Notes: generated by a model not told the origin, from the sequence alone. DNA of 525 nt from Escherichia coli (GCF_003334385.1 NZ_QOWN01000170.1), one strand, 5' to 3'. Positions 1 through 525 are shown, counted from the stretch's first letter. A program made the numbers and translations.

Positions 1-525
1 CGGAAGGGGTGATACGGATGCACGACGAGCGGACCCACCACTACGACAGCCAGCACCGCCTGGTGTTCTACACGCGGATACAGCACGGCGAACCACAGGT
101 GGAGAGCCGGTACCTCTATGACCCGCTGGGCCGCCGGACGGGAAAACGGGTATGGCGGCGGGAGCGTGACCTGACGGGGTGGATGTCGCTGTCGCGTAAA
201 CCGGAGGTGACATGGTACGGGTGGGACGGTGACAGGCTGACGACGGTACAGACCGGCACCACGCGTATCCAGACGGTATACCAGCCGGGGAGCTTCACGC
301 CGCTCATCAGAATCGAAACAGAGAATGGCGAACAGGCGAAGGCGCGGCACCGGAGCCTGGCGGAGGTGTTGCAGGAGGACACGGGTGTGACGCTCCCGGC
401 GGAGCTGGCGGTGATGCTGGGGAGGCTGGAGCGGGAACTGCGCGCGGGAGCGGTGAGTGCGGAGAGTGAGGCATGGCTTGCGCAGTGCGGGCTGACGGCG
501 GAACAGATGGCCGCGCAGATGGAGG
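1..525 (+). CDS. Rhs-family YD-repeat protein, internal fragment of the conserved core (partial at both ends; reading frame begins at position 3)
   Basis: Frame +3 is open across the entire window (174 sense codons, no stop). The translation contains YD-repeat motifs ([33 protein letters not shown]) and the stretch [24 protein letters not shown]...[18 protein letters not shown], which I recall as closely matching the E. coli Rhs core; this is memory, not a search. Third codon positions are strongly G/C-biased (about 83% by my manual count, G-ending codons dominant), which supports this frame as coding. Internal ATGs (18-20, 183-185, 414-416, 507-509, 519-521) are not starts because the frame is open upstream to the window edge. 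I cannot tell which paralog (rhsA/B/C/D-like) from this fragment, so no gene symbol is given. Confidence 0.9.
39..71 (+). repeat. Degenerate YD-repeat (Rhs repeat) motif, protein level: [11 protein letters not shown]
   Basis: In-frame peptide [11 protein letters not shown] fits the loose YD-repeat consensus (YD followed a few residues later by R-L-hydrophobic). It is a protein motif, not a nucleotide repeat. Confidence 0.55.
108..140 (+). repeat. YD-repeat (Rhs repeat) motif, protein level: [11 protein letters not shown]
   Basis: In-frame peptide [11 protein letters not shown] is a near-exact match to the Rhs/YD consensus RYxYDxxGRL(T). This is the best-conserved repeat in the window. Confidence 0.75.
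213..245 (+). repeat. Degenerate YD-repeat motif, protein level: [11 protein letters not shown]
   Basis: In-frame peptide [11 protein letters not shown] is a YxYDxxxRLT variant with Y replaced by W; the same aromatic-x-aromatic-D ... RL(T) register as the other two motifs. Confidence 0.6.

Follow-up and report, generated by a model that had tools for sequence, protein, structure and literature searches.

The T6SS Rhs shells whose structures have been solved are among the closest described systems to the Escherichia coli sequence analyzed here. The insert-free shells of S. bongori (8QJB/C/D), P. protegens (7Q97) and V. parahaemolyticus (8H8A/B) align with the E. coli core in the flanking strands, the PF03527 region and the C-terminal protease module, but they have 0 to 3 residues at a hairpin where E. 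coli cores have approximately 80. In the S. bongori structure paper, the outside of T6SS Rhs cores was described as smooth and undecorated. A surface feature has been described for Tse5 of P. aeruginosa (PDB 8CP6), in which "Helical Region 2" (HR2, residues 1031-1062) is a resolved, helical, solvent-exposed protrusion (PMC10684867). Contact of HR2 with a membrane model was proposed from a 1-microsecond MD simulation, and its authors tied HR2 to pore-forming cargo; they report it missing from 13 homologues whose toxins are known or predicted to be enzymes (PMC10684867). The plugs in Tse5 and Rhs1 are formed by the last 77 to 95 residues, approximately. Here, we describe a larger, predicted helical insertion at the Tse5 HR2 hairpin in an E. 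coli Rhs core. Searches of the Rhs structure papers, the 2009 rhs evolution paper and the wider literature returned no description of this larger insert of E. coli, Salmonella and Enterobacter Rhs proteins.

The window, by which we mean the whole 525-nucleotide stretch of DNA that was analyzed, contains a fragment of an Rhs core gene of the RhsG-type subfamily (nt 3-524, + strand). This assignment is based on the open frame, DNA identity, a homologue matching the NCBIfam equivalog NF041261 and the names of AFDB relatives, which are 91-97% identical in the window stretch and are called RhsG core protein. Frame 3 (+) is the only frame open across the window in the translation and six-frame view. 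It encodes 174 codons, and its translation gives exactly the peptide quoted in an earlier note on this DNA. Two minus-strand ORFs of 88 aa (window 116-382) and 55 aa (307-474) were considered and rejected as unsupported; they are rich in Pro, Ser and Arg, a composition typical of the antisense strand of GC-rich genes. By megablast, the window sequence is matched in 3721 of 5426 complete E. coli genomes, and the genes found there are always annotated as RHS element core protein. The gene family, the exact window sequence and its annotation are long known.

The best megablast match is a locus in E. coli strain 300709, with 100% DNA identity over all 525 bases except for one 6-nt gap. The gap reflects a tandem unit, ACCACT, of which the window has one copy fewer (after nt 36, window 31-48) than every E. 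coli match, so that the window measures 525 nt compared to 531 nt. The loss is in frame, falls inside a YD repeat and removes one HY from THHYHYDSQ. The 300709 copy is a 5'-truncated rhs pseudogene and, given that this is the closest match, the window's own copy may not give rise to a full effector. In the 300709 locus (L001 1-12531), the sole identical genomic copy adjoins hcp, an IS1A element and decayed T6SS genes (tssJ and tagH pseudogenes), and a second, frameshifted rhs and ISEc1 lie downstream of the truncated rhs.

An intact homologue, WP_000508723.1 (1410 aa, L003:3099-7331), is 97.6% identical and lies directly downstream of hcp and vgrG. Linkage to the T6SS is thus seen in both homologous loci, with Hcp and VgrG directly upstream in L003 and Hcp and T6SS remnants upstream in L001. 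The homologue scores 2487.6 bits against NF041261 RHS_core over residues 4-1257, the insert included; the curated cut-off is 2000 bits, and the score is that of the homologue, as the window's gene is seen for 174 codons. Six TIGR01643 stretches are found in full-length WP_000508723.1. The PF03527 / TIGR03696 region and the DPxGL motif are present in every homologue examined, at a position beyond the window end.

The first 104 residues of the translation (nt 3-314, + strand) form a YD-repeat, beta-hairpin part of the shell, as judged by translation, AlphaFold2 and shell alignments. All three YD-type motifs that the earlier note had placed in the first 100 or so codons are found here: YDSQHRL (aa 14, nt 42-62, +), YDPLGRR (aa 39, nt 117-137, +) and WDGDRL (aa 74, nt 222-239, +). 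The flank is predicted by AlphaFold2 to be all-beta with pLDDT 85-95, and by sequence search and Foldseek it aligns to the shells of Tse5, S. bongori, P. protegens and Advenella. At its end, a beta-strand, PLIRIETE (nt 300-323, +; model strand 102-109, window aa 100-107), leads into the insert. The upstream anchor, PGSFTPL, is kept in 71 of the 150 top relatives and in the solved shells.

The remainder of the window is occupied by the segment that we call the insert (aa 105-174, nt 315-524, +; residues 1075-1144 of WP_000508723.1), delimited by the AlphaFold2 models and by the gap in the alignments to solved shells. The earlier note had begun this segment at nt 300; a helical segment is present, but the first five residues of that span (PLIRI) belong to the preceding strand. 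The insert continues for approximately 8-10 residues past the window end (..QME-AEYIPERK-LHLYHCDH) before the YHCDHRG strand of PF03527. As had been reported for the last 75 or so codons, no YD motif occurs in aa 105-174. Composition changes sharply at this boundary. Ala accounts for 13 of 70 residues compared to 0 of 104 in the flank (Fisher p=3.5e-6), Tyr for 0 of 70 compared to 6 of 104, and helix formers (AELRQMK) make up 0.69 of the segment and 0.37 of the flank (p=5e-5). Across the 1410-aa homologue, aa 105-174 is the 70-aa stretch richest in helix formers (0.69, compared to a mean of 0.40 and 0.51 for the runner-up). The segment had also been characterized as charged, but this does not distinguish it: the charged fraction is 0.27 in the segment and 0.28 in the flank. 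The difference lies in the sign of the net charge, which is -7 (acidic) in the segment and +5 (basic) in the flank.

Comparison with solved structures supports the conclusion that the segment is a true insert relative to the solved Rhs shells. In HMMER alignments to the solved shells, both flanking strands aligned and the segment did not; when the window protein was compared with PDB chains, the matches ended exactly at the segment start. The number of residues between the two strands is approximately 0 in P. protegens RhsA 7q97, where the alignments overlap, 2 in S. bongori 8qjc (1313->1316), 3 in Vibrio RhsP 8h8a (1046->1050), approximately 12 in Advenella 8qja and 33 in Tse5 8cp6, compared to approximately 80 in E. 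coli cores. The description of the segment as an insert within the YD shell therefore holds, since the flanking strands are joined by 0-3 residues in the S. bongori, Vibrio and P. protegens shells. Foldseek with the fragment model retrieves the same solved shells (E 1e-10 to 1e-16, TM about 0.55). No Pfam family was found for the insert or for any of 44 insert sequences; two Pfam matches to GrpE on divergent inserts were set aside, as they look like coiled-coil composition. A profile of the 44 inserts found nothing significant in the PDB, the best match being a designed three-helix miniprotein (E=0.025), and among the 50 matches listed for a Foldseek search of the insert against AFDB50 all were Rhs proteins, with no independent occurrence of the module.

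Two independent AlphaFold2 runs agree that the insert is helical, rather than part of the beta-hairpin YD shell. For the in-context run, the last 289 residues of the core were modeled from an alignment of 137 sequences (mean pLDDT 85.3), and the isolated run used the insert by itself with 44 sequences; both are models of a 289-aa fragment or a lone insert, not of a closed cocoon. In context, five helices (model residues 110-115, 121-129, 135-150, 155-163 and 168-173; pLDDT 85-96 by 10-residue block) lie between the strands at 102-109 and 184-190 (LHLYHCD), and the isolated insert gives four helices with core pLDDT of 82-86. The structure prediction called for by the earlier note thus yields helices and no beta-hairpins continuous with the shell. 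Helix alpha1, NGEQAK (nt 324-341, +; 110-115 in context), is predicted in the in-context model only and is non-helical in the isolated one. Alpha2, LAEVLQEDT (nt 357-383, +), spans 121-129 in context and 18-26 in isolation. The longest helix, alpha3 (nt 399-446, +; 135-150 and 32-47), carries a conserved L..LE.EL pattern and has a hydrophobic moment of 0.42. Alpha4, AESEAWLAQ (nt 459-485, +; 155-163 and 52-61), has a conserved S..S..WL followed by CGL, and alpha5, AEQMAA (nt 498-515, +; 168-173 and 65-72), follows a conserved G-L-T-x-E-Q turn. A G-[LIV]-[TD]-P/x-[ED] turn before alpha5 recurs in divergent insert classes, and across approximately 30 cluster representatives hydrophobic positions are conserved at i/i+3/i+4 spacing. 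These models support the view that the segment is a folded helical unit, and neither a disordered linker nor a set of beta-hairpins.

All five K-12 cores carry a homologous segment, and it is their divergent part. Identity to the window is 45/70 in the segment and 95/104 in the flank for RhsD and RhsE, and 38-39/70 and 87-88/104, respectively, for RhsA, RhsB and RhsC; that is, the inserts of K-12 RhsA-E are 54-64% identical to the window's and the flanks 84-91%. The earlier note's impression that this segment differs from the K-12 cores while the flanking sequence is retained is borne out by these values (38-45/70 compared to 87-95/104). The K-12 cores also have five extra residues after LQ(E/Q) (EGSENGHG / SGGEDGGS), an indel after window nt 383 at the end of alpha2. 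In RhsG-type cores (WP_000508723.1, NF041261), by comparison, the insert is identical to the window's at 70/70 positions, and the window differs in lacking one HY unit. The cores with this 70/70 identity (WP_000508723.1 and the 300709 copy) are non-K-12 proteins that are annotated but uncharacterized, and the segment is identical to none of the K-12 cores.

By the Nei-Gojobori method, dN/dS against the K-12 cores is 0.37-0.45 in the segment and 0.09-0.12 in the flank, and the insert evolves approximately four times faster than its flanks. Over large distances, the insert is retained under purifying selection, although the constraint on it is weaker than that on the wall. A passenger that has no function would explain the raised dN/dS equally well. 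DNA identity to rhsD drops from approximately 0.9 to 0.64-0.76 at nt ~316, megablast matches to rhsD end at nt 365-390, and dS against rhsD and rhsE is 0.34 before the segment and 0.75 from its start, compared to approximately 0.9 on both sides against rhsA, rhsB and rhsC. This pattern suggests that recombination or gene conversion between Rhs subfamilies has left a boundary near nt 315-390. Such a boundary could in principle make the segment look different with no role for the protein, and a promoter within the gene that drives toxin and immunity expression would be a second kind of DNA-level signal; for EHEC rhsF and rhsG, such promoters have been reported ahead of the autoprotease site, further 3' than the segment in the window. 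The step in dS and the ends of the rhsD matches are what a recombination boundary would leave, but a mosaic history explains divergence and not fold, and the shift seen here is in amino-acid composition, with conserved helix periodicity. No sigma-70-like site, other internal promoter or terminator was found within the 525-nt window, and we regard an explanation at the DNA level as most improbable.

The insert is found in Escherichia, Shigella, Salmonella, Enterobacter, Pseudocitrobacter, Serratia, Rahnella, Diaphorobacter, Acidovorax, Delftia and a Polyangiaceae MAG. On sequence evidence, it is conserved across Enterobacterales and some Burkholderiales. When 1.84 billion cluster representatives were searched, 71 of the 150 top matches had both anchors, with spacers of 69-120 residues and helix-type composition; the named members of these 71 are Salmonella enterica and Serratia silvae. 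One 509-aa cluster representative contains three to four tandem YHCDH..LYYN blocks and probably derives from misassembled, repeated rhs copies. A close-homologue search with the full query returned relatives that are all at least 81% identical. A 463-nt contig of a Terrisporobacter petrolearius assembly (a Firmicute; 0.79x coverage) encodes a sequence 81% identical to the C-terminal region of E. coli-type Rhs proteins and is likely contamination.

A wider view of the hairpin was obtained by scanning GTDB species genomes with a query without the insert and keeping the 80 best among the first 600 pattern matches, a sample whose proportions are not population estimates. In this sample, the spacer is 10-27 residues in Halomonas, Microbulbifer, Pectobacterium, Curvibacter and others. 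Helical inserts of 80-100 residues occur in Escherichia albertii, Pseudocitrobacter, Rahnella, Diaphorobacter, Acidovorax, Delftia and the Polyangiaceae MAG. Pseudomonas, Burkholderia, Achromobacter, Acinetobacter and Andreprevotia carry an unrelated, Pro/Asp-rich insert of approximately 43 residues with a conserved "DEDPLW" (loci L031, L032, L038, L044, L046, L047, L052, L079 and L081). Because this unrelated insert occupies the same hairpin, the site is a general insertion hotspot.

The main rival to an exterior protein-contact module is that the insert is a functionless but folded passenger: if the hairpin turn is an insertion hotspot, the helical bundle could be a neutral, self-folding loop expansion that is tolerated and selected for solubility and folding only. 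Consistent with this, the site varies from 10 to approximately 100 residues across genera and has at least three unrelated classes (none, the ~43-aa "DEDPLW" type and the 80-100-aa helical type), the segment tolerates indels, its dN/dS is four times that of the flank, and shells that lack it work. In addition, the PDB profile search, the AFDB50 matches listed and Pfam gave no fold or family relative of the insert. However, a dN/dS of 0.37-0.45 is well below 1, the helix pattern and polar residues (LE.EL, S..S..WL, CGLT.EQ) are kept down to approximately 30% identity and across orders, and net negative charge is preserved in all enterobacterial-type inserts. We therefore consider a neutral passenger possible but somewhat unlikely.

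The position of the insert in the shell is informed by Tse5. Chain 8cp6_B comprises Tse5 residues 48-1168, and its HMMER coordinates, 983 and 1017, leave 984-1016 unaligned; adding 47 gives residues 1031-1063, compared to the published HR2 boundaries of 1031-1062. HR2 and the E. coli insert thus share a hairpin, between the PGxFxPL strand and the xHxDHLG strand. Both are helical, the E. coli insert by prediction, and HR2 is absent from RhsA and Rhs1. Among solved structures, Tse5 is the sole case with extra residues of note at this site, and by position the E. coli insert is its larger counterpart, with approximately 80 residues compared to 33. They differ also in that HR2 is linked to a pore-forming toxin, whereas the E. 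coli insert is acidic and its associated tips are Pfam toxin domains or DUFs. We detected no sequence homology between them: phmmer alignments stop at the insert, and the 44-insert profile misses 8cp6 at E<=10. HR2 and the E. coli insert may be independent insertions with different behavior.

Because the E. coli segment lies in the Tse5 HR2 hairpin, it most probably projects from the outer face of the cage. An exterior location is the most likely one by analogy, and it rests on the positional equivalence with Tse5 together with an argument from cavity volume. Reported Rhs cavities measure 25,000-35,000 Å^3. At 1.21 Å^3 per Da, an 80-aa domain would occupy approximately 10,600 Å^3 and a 158-aa toxin tip approximately 21,000 Å^3; together these would fill the cavity, and an insert placed inside would leave no room. 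The earlier note had listed a shell plug among the possible roles, and an interior element could be imagined in which the helices line the cavity or help to form the C-terminal plug, where they would touch or hold the toxin packed inside; basic toxin tips could conceivably be kept unfolded by an acidic surface. Against this, the equivalent hairpin of Tse5 lies on the exterior (PMC10684867), an additional domain of approximately 9 kDa would probably be too large for a cavity that also holds a 15-27-kDa tip, and the insert stays constant while tips change. The plug and protease, moreover, map 36-113 residues downstream. We examined and rejected the C-terminal plug and aspartyl protease as the identity of the segment: the segment spans residues 1075-1144 of the homologue, PF03527 starts immediately after it, and TIGR03696 and DPLGL are at 1180-1257 and 1253-1257, respectively. 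The plug/protease (TIGR03696, DPxGL) is a neighboring module of the same protein that begins 36 residues downstream, and it is beta-rich, highly conserved and catalytic, a region distinct from the insert. An interior role is, in our judgment, very improbable, and we hold the structural statement, that this is an exterior helical insertion domain, with good confidence.

The toxin tips found on insert-bearing cores are varied. By Pfam, RhsA carries Ntox34, RhsB and RhsD carry DUF4329, and RhsE carries DUF6973. The tip of WP_000508723.1 (L003 6871-7331) is matched weakly by the Pfam model for the L,D-transpeptidase catalytic domain YkuD (E=0.0018), which hints at a cell-wall-targeting cargo. The insert occurs with many different tips and goes with the core, not the cargo.

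The equivalence with Tse5 raises the possibility that the insert is a membrane-contact element, as proposed for HR2, with exposed helices that seat the shell on the target-cell membrane for toxin release. The shared hairpin and the contact suggested for HR2 by MD (PMC10684867) speak for this, as do helices that are mildly amphipathic, with hydrophobic moments up to 0.42. However, the evidence for Tse5 is from simulation only, and HR2 was tied to pore-forming cargo and reported absent from the 13 enzymatic-toxin homologues (PMC10684867), while the tips of the cores with this insert are Pfam toxin domains or DUFs and include no pore former. The insert itself lacks an amphipathic, membrane-facing character: its net charge is -7, the hydrophobic moments of its helices are 0.12-0.42 and it has no hydrophobic stretch, with a maximum 19-aa Kyte-Doolittle mean of 0.98. 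All 23 enterobacterial-type inserts are likewise net acidic (-1 to -8) and without a hydrophobic stretch. Acidic inserts with no hydrophobic stretch therefore favor an exterior protein-contact or stabilizing module over Tse5-like membrane contact. Membrane anchoring is less likely than a docking or stabilizing surface, and we consider it improbable.

We propose that the insert is an acidic mini-domain of approximately 80 residues and four to five helices, inserted in one beta-hairpin turn of the Rhs YD-repeat cocoon. The insertion point would be before the strand LHLYHCDHRG that opens PF03527, where the barrel wall runs its final stretch ahead of the C-terminal plug/aspartyl-protease module, and the mini-domain would protrude on the outside of the cocoon, close to the cocoon's C-terminal end. 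It would probably neither contribute to the wall nor act in closing the cage or in toxin cleavage; it is dispensable for building, plugging and cleaving the cocoon because insert-free shells do all three. The mini-domain would be a lineage-specific exterior module, most likely offering another protein a docking or stabilizing surface during T6SS loading or delivery. We assign this overall explanation a probability of roughly 0.7. The specific role as a docking surface is more tentative, and we would put it at less than even odds. Of the plug, hinge and partner-binding surface suggested in the earlier note, a partner-binding surface would fit best.

A more speculative extension of this proposal is that the insert is an autonomous acidic helical surface domain that determines delivery specificity, through the C-terminal region of a cognate VgrG, an adaptor or a target-cell factor, and that it keeps the Rhs subfamilies A-C, D-E and G apart. 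We think this unlikely at present; if it is true, exchanging the insert would re-route the effector. Part of the same reading, and similarly doubtful, is the suggestion that a helical insertion at the Tse5 HR2 site is general to a large Rhs clade, whatever the cargo, and not an adaptation of pore formers.

Few T6SS effectors are as common as the Rhs proteins, and the lineages from which shells have been solved all have little or no sequence at this hairpin. The statement that T6SS Rhs cores are smooth on the outside was based on a set of shells from which the founding family, that of E. coli, is missing, and the same gap affects the statement that a protrusion at the HR2 site is special to pore-forming Tse5 (PMC10684867). 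The gain presented here is a sub-domain annotation, not a new system, as a helical protrusion at the same site was already described for Tse5 (PMC10684867). If the insert is a passenger, the hairpin would be a permissive site for engineered insertions into the cage. If instead it is a docking surface, it would provide a handle for understanding and engineering how Rhs cages are loaded and delivered.
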